From positions 1 to 11,159 of the forward strand of contig CAYTEI010000057.1 of assembly GCA_964436705.1 (NCBI GenBank): a stretch of 11,159 nt of DNA, in the 5' to 3' direction. A program made the position numbers and the translations under genes. This DNA comes from an uncultured Thermococci archaeon. Its GTDB lineage: Archaea > Methanobacteriota_B > Thermococci > Thermococcales > CAYNOZ01. A model generated the notes under the pieces. The model was not told the DNA's origin, ran no database searches, and saw nothing but the letters and a program-made list of their open reading frames with translations. This document shows, one piece after another, positions 61 through 11,159 of the stretch; positions within the stretch are counted from its first letter, which is position 1, and each line of letters starts with the position of its first letter.

Positions 61-2001
61 TTACTTGAAGTATGAGAAGTAATCCTCCATGTGCGGGCTT
101 GTATCTCCTTTAAGCCATATCTCTATCGTGATATCGCCATCGCTAAATCCTAGGTCTATTTCTTTCCCGATTTGGCTTGATCCTATTGTCTTTGAGTCTC
201 CTGCTCCATCCTTAACCACGAACCAGAAATCATTATTACTTGTTTGATTCTTCACGGTTGCCTCGATCTGGACCTTGGCCGGTGTAAAACCTAATTGCTT
301 TGATTCTACTCCGTTTCCTTGCGGCTTACTACCGATTGAGTATTGATAGATTGCATTGCTTCCAGTTCCAGCGATCTCCATGACGGTTCCTCCATCATCA
401 AACCATACATCTACTGGGTTTCCATCCTCGCTTATTGAGTTGCTCCAATCTGATCCACTAGTAATAGTGCTGGCATCCCATGCTGTGCTTAGAGAGAATG
501 CTTTGATTGACCCTCCGTCATCGATGATGTAGGCTTCAGTTCCGTCTGGCCTAATATTTCCTCCTTGAATACTGCTACTTGCGTTATTGCTTAGGTATTC
601 AGAGACTGTTCCTTGGCTCATTGTAGTTATATCCCAGGCAGTTCCTAAACTCCATACACCAATGGATCCTTGTCCATGATCAAAGGTCATCAGTTTGGTT
701 CCATCCGGCTTAAACGCTATTGTTTTCGGATTATCCTCAACATAAGGAGTCATTCCTGTCATATCAAAAGTATTAAGGCTGCTTGCTGTGGTTACATCCC
801 AGGCAGTTCCTAGGGTAAATGATTCGATCTTGTTACTGTATTGATCCAGGATATACATCCTTGTTCCGTCTCTCCTGAACTCAATTGCCTGCGGAGTATT
901 ATAACTAATAGAATGAGTTCTTGGACTGCTTGGATTTACGACTGAGGCAATATCATGGGCTGTATTAAGATCGTATTCCTGTACCTGCGAACTTGTTAGC
1001 ACATATAATTTGTATCCTGAATCTCCTATGAATGAATCTAATGGAGCGCTGGTTGAACTATGACTGGTTTCGTAGGATTTACTCTGAATATTCCAGTATC
1101 CACCACTAGCTGTATGTTCAAGATAGTAGTCCGTAGTGTTTACGGATACGCTATTCTGTGTATCTAGTTTTGTGGCATCCAGGAAGGCATCCATCAATCC
1201 ATCATTATAGTTTAGCCTATCTAGGCCTCTGTCGAATAAGATCCTGGTCTGACCTCTAACCAGGTCTCCTCTTAGCTTGGCAATTGATTTGCTGTTTTCC
1301 TCTATTCTTTGGGCGTTGTTGACTGCTGTTTTGATATCGGCTTGGTTGACTCCTGCGTTGCTTACTTTTGCGTCTAGGTTGTCTAGGATTCTTTGGGCTA
1401 GGCTGTCTGCGGCTGGAGAATCATCACTCAGATCCTCTAATAATTTATTCTTCACCCATTGCTCGATCTCGGTTTGTGTGTTTTTGTCTGTGGCTGTTTT
1501 CCCTGCGTTACTGATCTTTGCGTCCAGATTATTGTATAATAGTTCGGCAATACTGTTACTATTAAGAGTATCATCGCCTAGAGGGTTGTTTAGTTCGTTA
1601 AATACCCAGGTCTCGATCTCTGACTGCGTATTCTTATCTCCACTTCCTCCTGCTTCGCTCACCTTAGCATCTAGGTTGTTGTATATTCTCTCTGCTATAC
1701 TATCGGTTGTTAATGTGTCATCGCTTAGATCATCATTCAGCTTATTCATTACCCAGGTTTCTATTTCGCTTTGAGTATTCTTTCCTCCATCGCTTACTGG
1801 AGCATCTAGGTAATCTATTATTCGCTGCGCTATACTATCCTGTGTAAGGCTTGCTCCACTTAGGTCTTCTAGGAGTTTGTTCTTTACCCAGTTCTCAATC
1901 TCTGCTTTGCTGGGTTTAAGATCGGTATCGTCGTGTTGTTCGCCATCTGCCCATATTATGCTTAGAATTTCTTCTTTTGTTAAATTATCTATATCTCCCA
2001 T
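61..2001 (-). CDS. 646 aa putative tail fibre / receptor-binding adhesin with three parts. N-terminal: 4 tandem ~45-50 aa repeats (K-N-T-Q-S-E-I-E-T-W-V..N.L...L.....SIA.R....NLDAKVS.AG). Central: 4 beta-propeller-like blades (..PDGT..Y...D....I..FSL.TAWD..T). C-terminal: beta-rich domain.
   Basis: A long ORF with no in-frame stops. ATG at 1999-2001 is preceded on the minus strand by GGGAGGG (plus 2007-2013) with a 5-nt spacer. It is the last gene in a co-directional structural operon. Internal repeat architecture read directly from the translation, PDGT/AWD motifs resemble PD40 (TolB-like) propeller repeats. Confidence 0.6.
   Translation of the reverse strand: MGDIDNLTKEEILSIIWADGEQHDDTDLKPSKAEIENWVKNKLLEDLSGASLTQDSIAQRIIDYLDAPVSDGGKNTQSEIETWVMNKLNDDLSDDTLTTDSIAERIYNNLDAKVSEAGGSGDKNTQSEIETWVFNELNNPLGDDTLNSNSIAELLYNNLDAKISNAGKTATDKNTQTEIEQWVKNKLLEDLSDDSPAADSLAQRILDNLDAKVSNAGVNQADIKTAVNNAQRIEENSKSIAKLRGDLVRGQTRILFDRGLDRLNYNDGLMDAFLDATKLDTQNSVSVNTTDYYLEHTASGGYWNIQSKSYETSHSSTSAPLDSFIGDSGYKLYVLTSSQVQEYDLNTAHDIASVVNPSSPRTHSISYNTPQAIEFRRDGTRMYILDQYSNKIESFTLGTAWDVTTASSLNTFDMTGMTPYVEDNPKTIAFKPDGTKLMTFDHGQGSIGVWSLGTAWDITTMSQGTVSEYLSNNASSSIQGGNIRPDGTEAYIIDDGGSIKAFSLSTAWDASTITSGSDWSNSISEDGNPVDVWFDDGGTVMEIAGTGSNAIYQYSIGSKPQGNGVESKQLGFTPAKVQIEATVKNQTSNNDFWFVVKDGAGDSKTIGSSQIGKEIDLGFSDGDITIEIWLKGDTSPHMEDYFSYFK
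1336..1917 (-). repeat. In-frame tandem coding repeat. There are 4 units of ~135-150 nt encoding ~45-50 aa helical-looking repeats in the N-terminal stalk of the 646-aa protein. The units are diverged at DNA level (about 70-75% identity by eye).
   Basis: Four consecutive peptide units begin KPSKAEIENWV / KNTQSEIETWV / KNTQSEIETWV / KNTQTEIEQWV, each ending ..NLDAKVS.AG. The matching nucleotide periodicity is visible (for example acccaggtctcgatctctgactgcgtattctt at ~1606 versus acccaggtttctatttcgctttgagtattctt at ~1752). Confidence 0.75.
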
Positions 2002-3886: not shown

Positions 3887-3892
3887 TCACCT
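3887..3892 (-). promoter_or_regulatory. Shine-Dalgarno AGGTGA for the 381-aa gene, overlapping the stop codon of the upstream 830-aa gene
   Basis: Minus-strand sequence GTAGGTGATACCAAGTG: AGGTGA, then a 6-nt spacer, then the GTG start. Confidence 0.5.
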
Positions 3893-6383
3893 ACTTCACA
3901 CTGAGCTCTCTGATCACTTGATAGTCTCTGAGGAGGTTTCTACTAATATCTTGAACTCCATCTCCGTGGATTGGGATTAGAAGAAAATCTGAAATATAAA
4001 TAGTATTACTATTGGTACTGTTCTTTTCTAACTCGAATATCACGGGATCTGTTTCTCTTGGTACTCGTAGTGGTCTTATGTATTCTTTGTAGTTTTCTGT
4101 TAAGGTTATTGATCTTGTTAGTCCGGATCCGTTGAGGCTGAGTGAATTATTGTTACTATCTTTGATTCTGAATAGTAGATCATTCTCTACTTGGTTTTCA
4201 TCTTTGGCAAGGATTACTGTTAAGTATTCTCCGTGGGTTAGATTGCTATATTTTAGTTTTTCTATGGTCTCTGAGGTTGTTAGATTGGTTTTTATGGTTT
4301 GGTGGTGTTGGTGGTTGGTTGGAAGGGCTCCTATCCCGATCTTAGTACCTTTAGGTATGGAATGGGTTTTCATTTTGCTGGTGGCGTTGATCTTTTGGTT
4401 TGTTGTGATGAGATCTAGGTGGTCTTTGGTTTTTGGTATTCCTGTTAGGTAATTATCTCCTAGAGTTACATCGAATGTATTATTGTGATCCTTCGAGCTG
4501 ACTCTATGACCTACATTACTTTCAAGACATAGTGCGAAATCATTAGCTCCATAACTAATACTCCATAGATCTCCTGAGAACTCTTCCTTAAGTACCAGTC
4601 TTCCTTGATACTCTCCTCTCCTTAGCTTTAGAGACCATCTGCTAAGATCTTCCGAGCCAAGAACTAGTTCTACTATGGCTTTTTCAGGTGAATAATCCCT
4701 AACAACAACATCCCTAACCTCCACACTACTACCTGATTGAGGTTCAAAGTTGATGGTTTCAGAACTACTCCATCCCCCCTTGGTATACACCTGTACTTCA
4801 ACTGGATCCCTCAACAAAAACCGAACCAAAGAATTTCCAATACCAGGGTCCCCACTGAACCTATGATTAGGATCGTAGACCTGAACCCAATCACTAGGAT
4901 CATCACTATTCATATCATCATATATTTTAACCTTTCCAGTATTTTTCTCAACGAAATCACTTAGTTTGAAGCCTAGGAATGCGTTATAAACGGGATCTAA
5001 CCAGATAGAATCGATCTTAATTTCGTTACTCACTGATAGGTTCTTTTCTACTGATACCTCAATTTCATCTCCACTGTTTTCCTCACTTACTTCGAATTCC
5101 TGGGTTTCTATGATGGTGTATTCTGTATTGTTAGTTGTCTTTTGTTCTTGCAGAAGATTTAATCCATTATTTATGTCTTCAACTTTGACTAGGATATCTT
5201 CTTCTATGTTGTTGTCTTTTAGTCCTATTTTTGCTTTGTAGGTTCCTTTTGGTATTCCATTTTTTGATCCTATCTTGAATTTTGTGTTTGCTTTTTCTCC
5301 TTGGGATCTTAGGATATTGGCTGTCATCCCCAAGAAATCTTCTAGGTATATTTCAACTCCACCCACAAGATCTCCACATGAACCATAGGGAAAACGGAAT
5401 ACCTCCATTTCACCTGCGGCTGATCCATAACTTCCACTGGAACTCATTACAACCAAATCACCCGTCTCCGGATTAATAAAACGAACATCACCACAACCAA
5501 CCGGAAGACAAACCTCAGTACACCCAAAAAAACCAAAACCACCATCATCAAAAAGAACAGACCTCAAAAAATAAGATAATCCATAATTACCAGATTTCAA
5601 ATAAGTAACATCATCTAATACAACTTTTACCAAATTACAACGATCATCATCCCCCACCCTAATACTCTCTATACCTAGGTACCCCTCTAGTCCATCGATC
5701 CTGAACGAATTATAACCCGGGCCTCTTTCATCTAGAGTAAGCAGATCTTCTCTCTGCTGCTCAACACTCTTCCCATCACTATGCCCCATCTCAGATAAAT
5801 AACCAATGATCTTCCCAGAATCCAATCTCTGGCTGGAACTACTGATCCTAGCCGAAGCACTTACCCCACCAACAATCTCCTGTTCTGTTTCGCTAGTTAG
5901 ATCTTTTCCTCCGTAGATGGGTATCTCTATGTCACCAATGAATAGTTCTTTCTTATCAATTAGAGCTATTTCTGTCACTATTTGTGCTCTAAATATTTCC
6001 TCACGATCCTCGTATGGACCTACTTTGTTTATGTGAGAGTTTAGGATGATTCCACTTTCTAGTTCTGAAATGTTTTGTAAGGTTTCTAGTGCTTTGTCTC
6101 CATAATTTCTTAACGCCTCTCTATACTTCTCCGAGGCCTCCATATAGTTATTGAAATGTATTAAGATGTTTATGCTTAGTTCTAATATGTTCTTTATTGG
6201 TTTTGCTTCTTTTTTGGTTTGGTTTCTTTTTATGATGATTTGTGGGTAGTAATGTTTGCTGTATTCGTCTATGGTTTTATCTCTACTTCCATAGAGCTCC
6301 GAATAAACTCTACTGATTGATAGATTATTTTGTAGTAGATTCTTCACTTCTATTATGGTTTTGGTGGAGAATTGGTTATTCAT
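3891..6383 (-). CDS. 830 aa large structural protein. Candidate tail tube/nozzle, appendage or baseplate-like component of a short-tailed virion. Contains a Gly-rich middle segment with a 4-Cys cluster (GCTEVCLPVGCGD ... SCGD) and an N/T/K-rich C-terminal third.
   Basis: 2.5 kb uninterrupted ORF. ATG at 6381-6383 is preceded by GAGAGG ~10 nt upstream on the minus strand. It sits immediately after the head-completion genes, where podovirus-type tail genes normally lie. No recognisable tape-measure features such as long helical repeats. Confidence 0.7.
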   Translation of the reverse strand: MNNQFSTKTIIEVKNLLQNNLSISRVYSELYGSRDKTIDEYSKHYYPQIIIKRNQTKKEAKPIKNILELSINILIHFNNYMEASEKYREALRNYGDKALETLQNISELESGIILNSHINKVGPYEDREEIFRAQIVTEIALIDKKELFIGDIEIPIYGGKDLTSETEQEIVGGVSASARISSSSQRLDSGKIIGYLSEMGHSDGKSVEQQREDLLTLDERGPGYNSFRIDGLEGYLGIESIRVGDDDRCNLVKVVLDDVTYLKSGNYGLSYFLRSVLFDDGGFGFFGCTEVCLPVGCGDVRFINPETGDLVVMSSSGSYGSAAGEMEVFRFPYGSCGDLVGGVEIYLEDFLGMTANILRSQGEKANTKFKIGSKNGIPKGTYKAKIGLKDNNIEEDILVKVEDINNGLNLLQEQKTTNNTEYTIIETQEFEVSEENSGDEIEVSVEKNLSVSNEIKIDSIWLDPVYNAFLGFKLSDFVEKNTGKVKIYDDMNSDDPSDWVQVYDPNHRFSGDPGIGNSLVRFLLRDPVEVQVYTKGGWSSSETINFEPQSGSSVEVRDVVVRDYSPEKAIVELVLGSEDLSRWSLKLRRGEYQGRLVLKEEFSGDLWSISYGANDFALCLESNVGHRVSSKDHNNTFDVTLGDNYLTGIPKTKDHLDLITTNQKINATSKMKTHSIPKGTKIGIGALPTNHQHHQTIKTNLTTSETIEKLKYSNLTHGEYLTVILAKDENQVENDLLFRIKDSNNNSLSLNGSGLTRSITLTENYKEYIRPLRVPRETDPVIFELEKNSTNSNTIYISDFLLIPIHGDGVQDISRNLLRDYQVIRELSVK

Positions 6384-7155: not shown

Positions 7156-8109
7156 CTATATTCCTGAGAACTCTAGAACAGCTGACTCATTATAAACCTC
7201 AAAAGAGGAGATTTCAAGCATTTTCTTTCTGGTTTCTATTTCGTTGTCCTTGTAGGTTAGTGTTGTTACTCCTTGTCCTATTGGTTTCCTCATAAATCTA
7301 TCATTAGTATTCGCCAACATGAAAGCCTCTCCCTCATCTAGTAGGTAGCTAGGCTTTATGCTGTTAAGTTCGTCAAGAGTATCTACGATTACTTGTCTGA
7401 ATAGTTCTGTATCATTGTTTACCCATTGTCTTAGTTGGCTCCACTGAGTACTCGAAACATAAAGGTTGTATCTTAGTCCTGTGGTTAGTGCATCGTCTAG
7501 TTTGTCTAGTCCACTCTGAATATCTTCTTGTATGTTGTCGAGGGTGCTCCAGTCGCTTCCTGATACGGTTAGGTTCTTTGATAGGTTTCTTAGTCCTGGG
7601 ACTTCGTATTTTTGGTCTCCGTTCACTATTAGGTCTTCTATTGATCTTCCTATGGCTTCTGCTGCTATCTGTATCTCCCTCTCATCAACATCGAACTGGT
7701 TCCTTGCGGAATCCCATCTCCAATTCGTTTGAAGTTCTAGATGGTGTACTGGTACCATTACGCTTCCCGGGACCAGATCAGATCTATCCAGGTTCTCACT
7801 CATACCATCCATATCCCTAACAGCTTCCCTCTCATTCTTATCCCAATACCACTTAGACGTAGTGATCGCAGGACCACTAAGTCTTTTAATGGACATATCA
7901 TCAGCAAAAACAGTGACATCACTGATAGCGCTTTTTATTTCTTTATCTATTTGTTCGAATGCGTCTTTGGGTATTCTGTCATTCGTTATTGGTTCACCGA
8001 TCTTTGTTTGGATTGCTTCATTTGTCATGAAAACAGAGTTGCTTAGATACTTGGATTTTTTAAGAGCTCTTCTCAGAGTGCCAGGATCCTTATCTCGATT
8101 AGCCTGCAT
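7156..8109 (-). CDS. 317 aa putative major capsid protein (HK97-fold type, no delta domain)
   Basis: Flanked upstream by the protease/scaffold and decoration-like genes and downstream by a connector-like gene. This matches the canonical lambda-like order C/Nu3-D-E-FII. The size is typical of scaffold-dependent MCPs. ATG at 8107-8109 with GGAG ~10 nt upstream. Assigned by synteny, not by recognisable sequence motifs. Confidence 0.6.
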   Translation of the reverse strand: MQANRDKDPGTLRRALKKSKYLSNSVFMTNEAIQTKIGEPITNDRIPKDAFEQIDKEIKSAISDVTVFADDMSIKRLSGPAITTSKWYWDKNEREAVRDMDGMSENLDRSDLVPGSVMVPVHHLELQTNWRWDSARNQFDVDEREIQIAAEAIGRSIEDLIVNGDQKYEVPGLRNLSKNLTVSGSDWSTLDNIQEDIQSGLDKLDDALTTGLRYNLYVSSTQWSQLRQWVNNDTELFRQVIVDTLDELNSIKPSYLLDEGEAFMLANTNDRFMRKPIGQGVTTLTYKDNEIETRKKMLEISSFEVYNESAVLEFSGI

Positions 8110-8126
8110 ACATAAACATCTCCAAA

Positions 8127-8597
8127 TTATTTGGTTAATACGTGGATTCTTTTAGCCTCAGAAGAAGCATCCACGCCTTCAAGTGCAACACCAACGACTG
8201 CCTCAGACTTCTCAACACTAGTCTCCCCACCAGTATCATTTTCCGTATGACTATGACCACTCCTAGGAGCTAAGTAACCATTACCAGCGCTCACCAACTC
8301 AGCCCCTTCAGAAACACTTTCACCAGAATCAAGCCAAAGAACAGCCGTACAACCAGAGACATCCATAACATTCACCGGCTCACCACCCTCATAACTCTCC
8401 GAGATATTACCAGTCAAAGGATCACTAACCACAGCAACACCAAGAGCCTCCTCACCAGCACCTCCATGTTTCTGCACCTTAGAATCTGTGTTTAGCCCTA
8501 CTAGCATGCCTGGGGTTATGGATTCGGCAGCCTCCGGATAACCTAAATCAACAGGATTTCCACCTGAAACAATCTTATTATCAGGTTTCTCTAACAC
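8127..8597 (-). CDS. ~157 aa Gly/Val/Ser-rich putative capsid decoration/cement protein (DUF2190-like). The track ORF extends to 8672, but its first ~25 residues are a hydrophobic artefact-like extension.
   Basis: Pattern G.LVGLNTD..V...GGAG.EALGVAVVS...G....YEGGEPV.VMDVSGCTAVLWLDSGESVSEGAELVSAGNGYL...EAVVGVALEGV...KRIHVL matches the G/V-periodic DUF2190 family found between scaffold and MCP genes. The GTG at 8595-8597 is preceded by GGAGG (8606-8610) with an 8-nt spacer. Confidence 0.55.
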   Translation of the reverse strand: MLEKPDNKIVSGGNPVDLGYPEAAESITPGMLVGLNTDSKVQKHGGAGEEALGVAVVSDPLTGNISESYEGGEPVNVMDVSGCTAVLWLDSGESVSEGAELVSAGNGYLAPRSGHSHTENDTGGETSVEKSEAVVGVALEGVDASSEAKRIHVLTK

Positions 8598-8664
8598 ACA
8601 AAAAACCTCCAAATATATACACAGAAAAGAACGAACCAAAAAAACAGACACAGAAATTAGATAA

Positions 8665-9114
8665 TTATTCATTTAATGCATAAGCTCCATCATGATGACG
8701 ATTCACTTCAGGATCATTTTCCTCGTTATTTGTTGGTGGCTTCTTCTCTTTCTTCCCCTCAAAGTTGTTACTGGTTCTAAGATCTTCTCTTATTGCCTCC
8801 AAATGATTAAGATCCATCTCCTCATAGAACTCCTTATCCCTATCAGTCTCATCAACCAACTCATTGACAATGGTCTCTTTTTTCTGTTTACTTTCTTTGA
8901 TCCTTTTTTCTTGTACTTCTTTTGCTTTTTTTAGTTCGTTGACTTCTCCAAGTTCTTCGTATTCTTCTAATTGTTGGTTGAGTTCCTGGTTTTCCTCCTT
9001 GATTTCCTGCTTCTTGTTTTGTAGTTCTTTTTTAGTTTCTTGGAGCTCGTTACGTTCTTGTTTTAGTTCATTTATTTGTTTCTCTAATTCTTCGATCTTT
9101 TCTTCTTCACACAT
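8665..9114 (-). CDS. Nested in-frame scaffold protein (149 aa, MCEEEKIEELEKQ...) initiated from an internal start within the protease-scaffold gene
   Basis: An in-frame ATG at 9112-9114 sits exactly at the protease/coiled-coil boundary. It is preceded on the minus strand by AAAAAAGGAGGTGAAAAAAGC-ATG (GGAGGTGA = plus 9122-9129, 7-nt spacer). The frame was checked: (9789-9114) = 675 = 3 x 225. Confidence 0.4.
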   Translation of the reverse strand: MCEEEKIEELEKQINELKQERNELQETKKELQNKKQEIKEENQELNQQLEEYEELGEVNELKKAKEVQEKRIKESKQKKETIVNELVDETDRDKEFYEEMDLNHLEAIREDLRTSNNFEGKKEKKPPTNNEENDPEVNRHHDGAYALNE

Positions 9115-9789
9115 GCTTTTTTCACCTCCTTTTTTGTCTAAATTTATGTCAGGGATCTGGGCTAGGATCATCGAATCAGTAGAATCACTGGAGTTGTTGG
9201 GGATGGGGCCCTTACAAGTGGAACAAGCACCCTCCTCCCCATCCAACAAAATAGCCAAATGATCAACATCATTCAACCGCCTCTCCACAAACTCATACTC
9301 CACACCATCGAACTCACCAGGATCCCTCACCTTATCCGCAAAAAACCCAATAGAAACAGGAAAACTAGAACCCATTAGAAACTCAGTAGCAACTCCTTCA
9401 ACGTCTTCTTTATTAAGATCTAGAACCATCTCAGCAACAATCCTATTCCTTTCCTCATCGAACTCCTGATTCCTCGTAAATCCTTTTTCGAATTCTGGCC
9501 GATTCATACCCCTGATCTTAACGTAATGACCATCTTTCCTCGGATGATTGAATACTACTGGAACATTTTCAAACAGGTTTCTTCTAGCTGCATCTCTGAT
9601 AGCGTTACCAGTCTTCAAATGATCATTATGAACTCCTTCTCGAGTTACTTCAACAGGAACCACTAAGAAACCATCCTCACGATAAACCTCCCTAGAAACA
9701 TCCCGATTCACAAAAACAGAACCCAAATCCACAATACCACAAACCAAATACCCTAAAGAACAGGCACAAAAACAAAGAAAATACATCAA
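8665..9789 (-). CDS. 374 aa prohead protease-scaffold fusion. The N-terminal ~225 aa are a prohead serine-protease-like domain (candidate catalytic His in VVFNHPRKDGH and Ser in GSSFPVSIGFF). The C-terminal ~150 aa are a K/E-rich coiled-coil scaffolding domain.
   Basis: Peptidase_S78 (HK97 gp4/XkdF-like) proteases share an H ... G.S.G.(F/G) arrangement with ~50-65 aa spacing, which is seen here. The C-terminal EEEKIEELEKQINELKQERNELQETKKELQNKKQEIKEENQELNQQLEEYEEL has the heptad-like charged periodicity typical of scaffold proteins. It is the first gene of the operon after an AT-rich intergenic region. The extreme N-terminus (MMYFLCFCACSLGYLVCG) looks artefactual, and the true start may be internal (for example the GTG at ~9709-9711). 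Confidence 0.6.
   Translation of the reverse strand: MMYFLCFCACSLGYLVCGIVDLGSVFVNRDVSREVYREDGFLVVPVEVTREGVHNDHLKTGNAIRDAARRNLFENVPVVFNHPRKDGHYVKIRGMNRPEFEKGFTRNQEFDEERNRIVAEMVLDLNKEDVEGVATEFLMGSSFPVSIGFFADKVRDPGEFDGVEYEFVERRLNDVDHLAILLDGEEGACSTCKGPIPNNSSDSTDSMILAQIPDINLDKKGGEKSMCEEEKIEELEKQINELKQERNELQETKKELQNKKQEIKEENQELNQQLEEYEELGEVNELKKAKEVQEKRIKESKQKKETIVNELVDETDRDKEFYEEMDLNHLEAIREDLRTSNNFEGKKEKKPPTNNEENDPEVNRHHDGAYALNE
9122..9129 (-). promoter_or_regulatory. Internal Shine-Dalgarno GGAGGTGA 7 nt upstream of the in-frame ATG that starts the scaffold domain
   Basis: Read directly. It is the strongest SD match in the window and it lies inside a coding region. Confidence 0.5.
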
Positions 9790-10053
9790 ATATATATCAA
9801 GGAAAAAGAGGGTATCCTACCTGTTCACCCAAAGAAACGGGTTAATAAAACATATATCCTCCTAATATAAAAGCATTATAGTATAACTTCCGAAAAAACC
9901 GATAATAGGTTAAAATCATTATAACAAAATAGAAAAATACAGCATTCAAACAATAAAAATCAATTACGACGAAATATACGTTTTTTAATAAAATAAATAC
10001 AAAAAACATGATAAATAATTGGATACTCATCCTTCAATTTATTCATCCACTCC
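9790..10053 (-). promoter_or_regulatory. AT-rich (~25% GC) intergenic region between the RM-like gene and the structural operon. Probably the operon promoter/leader, and probably the RM gene's terminator.
   Basis: 264 nt with no credible ORF (only a 62-aa hydrophobic shadow). Minus-strand oligo-T runs follow the RM gene stop (TCATGTTTTTTGTATTTATTTTATT). TATA-like stretches lie near the protease start (TTGATATATATTTG). No clean hairpin terminator found. Confidence 0.35.
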
Positions 10054-11159
10054 TCAATCCTCTAATTTATTGAATTTCTGAATAATTTCTCTTTTAATCT
10101 CTTCATTAGTATCTAAAGAATCCAGAACCGTTTCTACCTCATCCTCAGTAAGATCATAAAGATCAAATACAATAGCATCAATCTCATTATCAGTTTCTTG
10201 AATCTCTCTTTCCAGCTTTTCAGCCTTCTCTTTGTTTTCTATGAACTTTTCTAGTCCTGATTCCACGTCTTCAAGTTTCGGTAAAGTCAACTTCTCCAAC
10301 CTATCTATTAGGGAGTTAGTCTTAGTAGCTGTTTCTCTGAAGTTTGCGAATCCACCGGCCTCATCCAAAGCCAGAGAAACAAACTCCTCGATCAAAGGCC
10401 TCAACTTCTCATCAACATCAAACCTCATCGCAGGTACTTTCTCAGTCTTAAAGTAACCCCATTGATCCAACTCATCCTCATCGATACTTTCAGATTCATC
10501 AGGCTTGTAACGAGCAGAAACCTTCAAGACTAAATCATCGTTTCTTTCCTCAAACTCAACACCGCCAATCCTCAAACTATCCCGATCAGCAGAAGTATCA
10601 CTAACAACTTTGTCGGAGAGGCCTTCAACAGGCATATAGAGTTCTCCTAAAGTTTTTCCGTCAGGATCCTCAACTGAAGTTCCTAGATAGTCTAAAATTT
10701 CAAGGTTTATGCCATCCAAATTATCTCTCTTTTCTCTGGCTTCGGATACCAGTTTATTCAACCTCGTGATTTTTTCTTCAGAGTCCACAACAGGTACAGG
10801 ATTGAGATAAGAAGTTTTGAATCGGAAGAAACCTCCCCTCAATCTTGAACTGGTATTAGAAATGAAAAACCAGGTAATTTTGCTATTGAGCTGAGCTAGA
10901 TAATATCTCATTTTTTCTTTAACTTCTAACTCCACTCCGTAACCTGTATCTGCAAAGTAAATACCTCCCTCTCTGTCCAGAGTAAATTCACAGCCATTAC
11001 TTATATCCGGAGTTAGTATCTTCTTTGAATCAAATACTTCTTTTTCTCTCGGACACCACAGTGCGTACCATTTCTCATAATTCATAGAGGATGTCCCACG
11101 GGAAGATAATCGCTTCTTATTGACCTCAAGATAAGAATAAGTCTTTGGATACTCATTTT
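10054..11159 (-). CDS. C-terminal portion (>=368 aa, 5' end outside the window) of a Type IIG restriction-modification enzyme / N6-adenine DNA methyltransferase (BREX PglX-like is possible), with a TaqI_C-like target-recognition domain
   Basis: The reading frame stays open from the annotated ATG (11083-11085) to the window edge (..NEYPKTYSYLEVNKKRLSSRGTSSMNYEKWYALWCPREKEVFDSKKILTPDIS..). This matches the conserved E.YP.iy.YL....kL..R.......WyeL.rpRe...f...KIv.pdi. block. Further hallmarks are LAQLNSKITWFF (LNSK motif), RLRGGFFRFKTSYLNPVPV (RGG..EF....L..LPIP motif) and the C-terminal IDAIVFDLYDLTEDEVETV (vy.LYgLTeEEI..vE). Confidence 0.7.
   Translation of the reverse strand, partial: NEYPKTYSYLEVNKKRLSSRGTSSMNYEKWYALWCPREKEVFDSKKILTPDISNGCEFTLDREGGIYFADTGYGVELEVKEKMRYYLAQLNSKITWFFISNTSSRLRGGFFRFKTSYLNPVPVVDSEEKITRLNKLVSEAREKRDNLDGINLEILDYLGTSVEDPDGKTLGELYMPVEGLSDKVVSDTSADRDSLRIGGVEFEERNDDLVLKVSARYKPDESESIDEDELDQWGYFKTEKVPAMRFDVDEKLRPLIEEFVSLALDEAGGFANFRETATKTNSLIDRLEKLTLPKLEDVESGLEKFIENKEKAEKLEREIQETDNEIDAIVFDLYDLTEDEVETVLDSLDTNEEIKREIIQKFNKLED

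Follow-up and report, generated by a model that had tools for sequence, protein, structure and literature searches.

We analyzed a stretch of 11,159 nucleotides (nt) from contig CAYTEI010000057.1 (GenBank assembly GCA_964436705.1), below called the window, in which all sizeable open reading frames (ORFs) are located on the minus strand. The element in question is the ORF at 8665..9789 (minus strand), which is predicted to encode a protease-like domain fused to a scaffold-like domain, with a candidate internal translation start between the two. Read from stop to stop this ORF is open over 374 codons followed by TAA, and the database call begins at ATG 9786 and gives a protein of 373 amino acids (aa). 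Two numberings are in use below, that of the ORF codons and that of the 373-aa database call, which is one lower.

The N-terminal domain occupies 9232..9696 (minus strand, ORF codons 32-186). It was found to match the Pfam family DUF2213 (PF09979, termed Pa193_gp24 in newer releases) over residues 59-187 with 25.3 bits against a gathering cut-off of 22, and an identical database protein, P0001, carries a precomputed PF09979 assignment. The match in PHROGs was to family 530, 'head maturation protease' (6e-11). AlphaFold2, run on an 18-sequence alignment, gave a confident beta-rich domain at residues 31-185 with a predicted local distance difference test score (pLDDT) of 80-95, and disorder at residues 1-30 and 186-229. 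Foldseek against viral models (BFVD) returned DUF2213 proteins, many of the entries being named 'prohead (serine) protease' or 'capsid maturation protease'. The model supports a fold of the T4 gp21 type, the characteristic gp21/assemblin fold of prohead serine proteases (MEROPS S77/S78/S80/S21) being recognized in the predicted structure. A sequence search of the PDB with the whole protein gave coiled-coil noise only.

The motifs EGV(H)N, HP, VS.G, DHLAIL, and GACS are colinear as in the PF09979 family, and columns E50, G51, V52, H81, S145, D175, H176, A187, C188, and S189 (373-aa numbering) are invariant in the 18-sequence alignment. The candidates for a catalytic triad, all of them among these invariant positions, are His82 of the NHP motif (9544..9546), Ser146 of the VSIG motif as nucleophile (9352..9354) and Asp176-His177 of the DHLAIL motif as third member (9259..9264; ORF codons, minus strand). 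The gp21-type protease gp245 of SPN3US has the triad H77/S153/D178, which aligns with T4 gp21 (PMC5694885), and the order and approximate spacing of the candidates resemble those of gp245. In a second alignment of 8 sequences His177 was invariant (8/8), while the equivalent of Ser146 was Ser in gp7 of Salmonella phage ES18 and gp24 of Pseudomonas phage Pa193, and not in the poorly aligned row of the haloarchaeal tailed virus HFTV1.

A disordered linker at 9115..9231 (minus strand, codons 187-225) connects the protease-like domain to the helical domain. It contains the GACSTC motif and Met207, has a pLDDT of 23-40 and is gap-rich and variable in alignments. Beyond it AlphaFold2 predicted helices at residues 227-278, 281-313, 318-322, and 326-344 (373-aa numbering, in which the internal Met described below is residue 225), and this region can be aligned with the C-terminal domain conserved in the family. 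The long helices over residues 227-344 and the alignment agree with the scaffold-like C-terminal domain proposed in the first-pass annotation of this DNA. A helix-turn-helix that follows the DUF2213 domain of Pa193 gp24 (residues 286-326) binds to the inside of the capsid (PMC11456595). Cysteines are conserved on either side of the linker (alignment A1), where GACS..DGCG ends the protease domain and C..C opens the C-terminal domain; the window gene has GACSTC (9214-9225) and only one Cys, which directly follows the internal Met (9109-9111). These cysteines might form a metal site joining both domains.

At the boundary lies an internal Shine-Dalgarno (SD) sequence, AAGGAGGTGA, at 9131..9122 (minus strand). 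Nine of its bases (AGGAGGTGA) are complementary to the conserved 3' tail of 16S rRNA, and in the frame of the ORF it reads Lys-Gly-Gly-Glu. Seven nt (AAAAAGC) after it comes an ATG at 9114..9112 (minus strand; context ...GACAAAAAAGGAGGTGAAAAAAGCATGTGTGAAGAAGAAAAG...), which is codon 226 and in frame, since (9789-9114)/3 = 225. The nested ORF that begins here, 8665..9114 (minus strand), would encode a predicted free scaffold of 149 aa (MCEEEK...) followed by the stop codon, with a pI of 4.7 and 30% Asp+Glu. Its length falls inside a cluster of 135-195 residues in the family. The first-pass annotation had described a near-consensus SD 7 nt before an in-frame ATG, and its spacing, frame and 149-aa product were correct, but it had placed the motif at 9122-9129, which spans only GGAGGTGA. 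The position of the ATG at the domain boundary was also found to hold, with predicted disorder at 186-229 and helices from residue 227, two residues past the internal Met.

The 10-mer AAGGAGGTGA has one exact copy in the window, compared to 0.027 copies expected on the coding strand from base composition, and its sole copy with one mismatch (3887-3896) is found directly before another gene start, GTG 3880. When all in-frame internal ATG, GTG, and TTG codons in the 11 window genes were considered, codon 226 had the strongest predicted anti-SD pairing (-12.9 kcal/mol). The next-best sites inside genes were ATG 381 in a 646-aa gene (-9.3) and GTG 9663 in the target gene itself (-9.1), and the earlier statement that this is the only strong SD buried in a gene of the window was essentially right. 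Both the SD and ATG 9114 are unpaired in the predicted mRNA fold. The fold around the internal start was not unusually stable (z = -1.2), and because its stability is ordinary the idea of regulation by a hairpin was dropped. On its own, a single SD with an ATG is modest evidence; judged from the sequences, it is the recurrence in relatives that puts it beyond chance.

At the 5' end of the ORF, the first 26 codons (9712..9789, minus strand) are GT-rich and encode MYFLCFCACSLGYLVCG..., a peptide unlike the acidic remainder of the protein. Residues 1-30 are modelled as disordered (pLDDT about 22), and the 26 codons precede the conserved N-terminal Asn of the family; this stretch is probably a leader and not coding. 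Candidate starts for the full-length product are ATG 9786, GTG 9732, and GTG 9711, the last of which is followed by the conserved Asn. An SD was sought at these three codons and none of them has one, the best pairing being -3.1 kcal/mol. Other cistrons in the window were found to have SDs (GGAGG before GTG 8597, GGGAGGG before ATG 2001 and AGGTGAT before GTG 3880). The called N-termini of the target and the next gene (9712-9789 and 8598-8672, minus strand) consist of GT/T-rich, intergenic-looking DNA, and the peptides are hydrophobic, Cys-rich and unlike the acidic proteins that follow. The true starts are probably further downstream, at GTG 9711 or 9732 for the target and at GTG 8597 behind GGAGG for the next gene, in which case the 8-nt overlap of the two calls would vanish.

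Since a close relative of the target gene is absent, conservation was assessed in distant ones. More than 348 IMG/VR loci were found, 80 were fetched, and 67 non-redundant genes with 24-36% identity to the target were scored. Each GGAGG was classed by whether an in-frame ATG or GTG followed at 4-11 nt downstream. This per-site scoring replaced an earlier statistic that compared in-frame with out-of-frame starts by energy alone, which was diluted by the fact that several start-like triplets around one SD all score.

In the protein alignment a Met, often after Gly-Gly-Glu or Glu-Glu, is present just before the C-terminal domain in most homologs. Past the protease domain, 67 of the 152 GGAGG sites in the non-redundant genes (44%) had an in-frame start, compared to 21 of 206 (10%) for the remaining ORFs with a length of 200 aa or more in these loci and 2 of 43 (5%) within the protease domain (Fisher p = 2.4e-13 and 3.8e-7, respectively). 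The GGAGG was in codon phase 0 (Gly-Gly) in 35 cases and in phase 2 (x-Glu-x) in 32, and the spacing peaked at 7-8 nt. That Gly-Gly and x-Glu-x both occur as readings of the motif argues for selection on the nucleotide motif, not on the peptide. The first-pass annotation had named drift in homologs that destroys the SD or the ATG as an outcome that would speak against it; the opposite was seen, as distant relatives have a strong excess of SD-led in-frame starts at this boundary. In the closest relative, P0002, the in-frame ATG is kept at the homologous spot and the SD is degraded.

The starts fall into two hot spots. Among the 60 complete genes, 20 had a strong SD-led start 14-21 residues past the GACS motif that ends the protease domain, 38 had one directly before the conserved C-terminal 'C..C....LIAN' domain, with 140-195 residues remaining, and 16 had both. 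The window gene is without the middle domain of many relatives, and its one site is located just past the linker and at the same time 149 residues from the end. A further in-frame ATG of the window gene, that of Met207 (9169-9171), lies 17 residues after GACS, which is the exact position of the first hot spot; it is without a strong SD and may be the relic of an upstream internal start. In 45 of 52 genes the internal SD was predicted to pair more strongly than the best one available to a candidate full-length start (medians of -11.6 and -5.9 kcal/mol), a comparison in which the best of more candidate codons was taken internally. The corresponding values in the window are -12.9 and -3.1 kcal/mol.

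In many relatives (e.g., L054, L038, L002, and L079) the protease and scaffold domains are separated by a middle domain of about 120 aa ('...GY.V...YL.EV....Y...'), which has an SD-led in-frame start of its own. From their sequences such genes would encode three co-terminal products. Candidate internal starts were also identified in Brevundimonas phage StAshley (codon 241, -11.4 kcal/mol) and in gp7 of ES18 (codon 308, -10.0 kcal/mol). The StAshley gene (StAshley_00430; L088:2447-4153) is annotated as 'hypothetical protein' and ES18 gp7 (L085:2456-3721) as 'function unknown'.

Downstream of the target lies a decoration/cement-like gene at 8127..8597 (minus strand; weak Pfam matches to XM1_gp53 and Phage_cement), for which GTG 8597 is a likelier start than ATG 8672. 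It is followed by the gene for an HK97-fold major capsid protein at 7156..8109 (minus strand; Pfam Linocin_M18 and DUF6260, PHROG 771 and 264), the presumed client of scaffold and protease. The order of fusion, cement-like and HK97-fold capsid gene was likewise found in Halorubrum virus Hardycor1, ES18, Pa193, and StAshley. In tblastn searches against cultured phages the capsid protein had no matches and the target protein three weak matches only.

On the other side of the target, an ORF with a TaqI_C domain (10054-11085, minus strand) corresponds to the C-terminal part only of Eco57I-like methylase/restriction proteins, the homologs of which have 448-597 aa. It is possibly a gene fragment at the edge of a provirus. 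Its best named homolog is from Nanohaloarchaea archaeon SG9 (58% identity over 98% of the query), where it belongs to a cellular restriction-modification locus, and the other named ones among the 120 matches listed are nearly all from halophilic archaea. All proteins of the window have a pI of 4.2-5.4, and the GC content is about 39%. The TaqI_C homologs and the acidic proteome suggest a virus or provirus whose host is an archaeon of hypersaline habitats, possibly a nanohaloarchaeon.

Several other features of the window were recorded. The 646-aa distal protein (61-2001, minus strand) has four tandem repeats of about 48 aa (K.TQSEIE.WV.NKL.D.L.DD.L..DSIA.R....LDAKVS.AG) at about residues 25-215, followed by a Trp/Asp-rich repeat region, and is likely a fibre or receptor-binding protein. 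Inside an 830-aa gene (4001-4500) the GC skew flips to +0.30 and the AT skew falls to -0.44, the GC skew being negative in the rest of the window. The exact 10-mer TATATATTTG is found twice on the minus strand, at 8610-8619 and 9787-9796, in the leaders just upstream of the cement-like and target genes. It could be a promoter or TATA-like element, with the reservation that neither a sigma-70 model nor an archaeal leaderless one accounts well for how far it lies from the two starts. The spacer of 265 nt that precedes the head genes contains a strong SD, AGGAGG, and 4 nt after it a mini-ORF of three codons, ATG TTT TAT TAA (9843-9862, minus strand; about 60 nt upstream of the target ORF). The pair might encode a leader peptide or act as a standby site, or it might have arisen by chance. 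A scan of 8000-10200 for sigma-70 promoters and intrinsic terminators gave nothing above shuffles (the model was that of sigma-70 and the host is possibly archaeal), and an Rfam scan of the window found zero families. The plus strand contains a single GGAGG in the entire window, and the plus-strand ORFs antisense to the target (8692-8934, 8864-9262, and 9526-9666) encode low-complexity Ser/Phe/Leu strings and were treated as non-genes.

We consider it probable from the sequence that the target is a nested protease/scaffold gene from which two products are made in one frame. A protease-like domain and a C-terminal scaffold share the frame, and an in-frame internal start with its own ribosome-binding site is located at their boundary. 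The lambda C/Nu3-type logic invoked by the first-pass annotation is supported by this fusion layout, by the SD-led start at the boundary and by its recurrence in relatives. The full-length product of about 350 aa would consist of a gp21/assemblin-fold protease domain, the disordered linker and a helical scaffold tail, and since its start is without an SD it would presumably be made in small amounts. Ribosomes would, in addition, be recruited by the near-perfect internal SD and initiate at ATG 9114, resulting in an excess of the 149-aa scaffold-only protein. Both the free scaffold and the tail of the fusion would assemble together with the HK97-fold capsid protein, whose gene is the second one downstream; the shared capsid-binding tail would carry a few copies of the protease into the procapsid, and the protease would remove the scaffold by digestion ahead of DNA packaging. 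Architecture, signals and the conservation of these signals come from sequence and structure prediction, and from the presence of the internal start and its conservation in relatives we infer that it is used in vivo. The existence of two products, their ratio and the proteolysis are proposed by analogy with lambda C/Nu3, phage Mu I/Z, herpes simplex virus 1 (HSV-1) UL26/UL26.5, and HFTV1 gp17/gp17.5.

A number of observations weigh against this interpretation. The closest homolog of the target has only 41% identity across 45% of the length. Thirteen of the 60 complete relatives are without a strong internal SD-led start, and none was found in Pa193 gp24, in Hardycor1 or in one Methanosarcinales virus. 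The larger number of internal codons available in the comparison of SD strengths counts here as well. In the SG9 locus, the one locus considered, SDs are present in 3 of 19 genes only, and with a nanohaloarchaeal host the majority of genes may go without them; against this, several genes within the window operon do have SDs. With respect to the N-terminal domain, Pfam gave zero matches to Peptidase_S77, S78, U35, or XkdF at E<=0.1. The prohead-protease-like domain of the first-pass annotation is borne out by PHROG 530, the predicted fold and the Foldseek entries but not by a profile match to Peptidase_S78, U35, or XkdF, the families it had suggested searching. In hhalign the family profile gave a probability of 0.4% against T4 gp21, which is no sequence signal, and His82 is replaced by Arg in Pa193 gp24 (alignment A3, 8 sequences). 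Because the sequence comparison with T4 gp21 was empty and the first His of Pa193 gp24 does not align, we call only the fold and infer the catalytic activity.

The points concerning the N-terminal domain bear on an alternative that we find unlikely, in which DUF2213 is not an active protease but a structural, capsid-targeted or portal-interacting domain, and the nested start gives rise to a long and a short scaffold isoform. The lack of sequence matches to curated protease families and the Arg at the position of His82 in Pa193 gp24 are consistent with it. So is the sole experimental paper on a family member, which refers to a 'putative scaffolding protein' present in mature virions and does not address cleavage (PMC11456595). 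However, many prohead and capsid maturation proteases are among the BFVD matches, and the His, Ser, and Asp-His are invariant in the subfamily and follow the order of the gp21-type triad. Moreover, the window, which is part of an incomplete contig, has no other protease candidate beside the capsid gene.

It is improbable that the short product is made from an internal transcript of its own, as for UL26.5 or in the form of a leaderless mRNA in an archaeal host, with the SD being secondary. An AT-rich, TATA-like ATAAATTTA (9147-9139) is present about 29 nt upstream of the ATG, a spacing that would be expected of an archaeal TATA box and a leaderless start. The host clues furthermore point to halophilic archaea, which mostly use leaderless mRNAs, and the internal start of HFTV1 works without any SD. 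However, the element conserved in relatives is the SD at canonical spacing and not the upstream AT-rich box, AT-rich 9-mers are common at 39% GC, other cistrons in the window have SDs, and the sigma-70 scan gave nothing above chance (no archaeal promoter model was applied).

We give little chance also to a single-product fusion of the P2 gpO type, with a self-processing full-length protein only and an internal SD and ATG that reflect chance or a translational pause site. In its favour, an in-frame start follows about 10% of the GGAGG sites of control ORFs, the target gene has five other GGAGG sites with no such start, and a strong internal start is missing from 13 of 60 relatives. Against it, only 0.027 copies of the exact 10-mer are expected per strand, the in-frame SD-led start recurs at the same boundary in distant relatives (p = 2e-13) at canonical spacing and in two codon phases, and the target has zero gpO-type Pfam or PHROG matches together with a strong internal SD-led start.

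The nested protease/scaffold gene can be compared to several known systems. Lambda gpC is a ClpP/S49-type protease, unlike the N-terminal domain of the target, which has the predicted gp21/assemblin fold, no sequence similarity to gpC and no S49 match in Pfam; the two are analogous, not homologous. According to the account in PMC8508860, which cites Shaw and Murialdo (1980), the lambda scaffold gene Nu3 is an in-frame ORF nested in the 3' part of the protease gene C and has its own SD, and the two systems would be alike in that the scaffold is in excess and the protease has the same C-terminal tail. HSV UL26/UL26.5 also combines an assemblin-fold protease with a scaffold in one fusion and has a nested in-frame scaffold-only product in large excess, and its fold class fits the T4 gp21 match of the target. 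UL26.5 has its own promoter and mRNA, whereas the conserved signal of the target is a ribosome-binding site inside a long ORF. In phage Mu, I/Z is a protease gene with an in-frame nested scaffold product, but it belongs to a different Pfam family (Mu-like prophage I protein), which had no match in the target. The T4 protease gp21 and scaffold gp22 differ in being encoded by separate genes, and the sequence identity to the target is 10%.

In HFTV1 the nested scaffold gp17.5 of gp17 was demonstrated by ribosome profiling (Ribo-seq) with harringtonine and by mass spectrometry, the C-terminal product being about 188 aa (bioRxiv 10.64898/2026.09.13.751334). Its protease-scaffold ORF is of similar size to that of the window and is likewise followed by genes for a small capsid-stabilising protein and an HK97-fold major capsid protein. 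It differs in that the internal start is without a recognisable SD and start selection is unexplained, whereas the target has a perfect SD of 9-10 nt. HFTV1 gp17 had zero Pfam DUF2213 matches, and hhalign against the family profile was colinear and not significant (probability 8%); as the similarity is non-significant, homology is not claimed. Pa193 gp24, the type member of PF09979, shares with the target both the Pfam family and the neighbourhood, being followed by a virion structural protein and the major head protein. Unlike the target it has no strong internal SD-led start, its candidate His is unaligned, and it is a protein of 478 aa with extra middle regions. RefSeq lists it (L086:12595-14031) as 'head maturation protease', and the structural paper as a putative scaffold.

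We also put forward, as a tentative idea for which the odds are somewhat less than even, that DUF2213/Pa193_gp24 as a whole represents a widespread, unrecognised class of nested head-assembly genes. These would combine a gp21-fold protease with a scaffold, have SD-led starts at one or two domain boundaries and give up to three co-terminal products (full-length, middle plus C-terminal and C-terminal only), with dosage set by weak 5' and strong internal starts. The window would then contain the minimal, two-product version, in viral or proviral DNA with a hypersaline archaeon as host, possibly from the nanohaloarchaea. The nesting trick is already known from phage lambda and the herpesviruses, while its family-wide and often double use appears to be unreported; a literature search on DUF2213/Pa193_gp24, which was not exhaustive, found no paper on internal starts or on the protease fold.

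The internal start is conserved, and often doubled, in a large family that is mostly annotated as 'hypothetical'. Gene callers give one protein for the target gene and would miss what may be the most abundant head-assembly product. 'Scaffolding proteins' of the Pa193 gp24 type would become protease-scaffold fusions, and the predicted start sites at codon 241 in StAshley and codon 308 in ES18 gp7 are in cultivable phages. The internal SD would also provide a sequence-level handle on how the ratio of protease to scaffold is set. If the family-wide class is real, the window would be a case of SD-driven internal initiation in an archaeal virus, the sole experimentally studied archaeal case, HFTV1, being without a recognisable signal; and if the host assignment holds, its explicit ribosome-binding signal would form a complement to the unexplained start selection of HFTV1.

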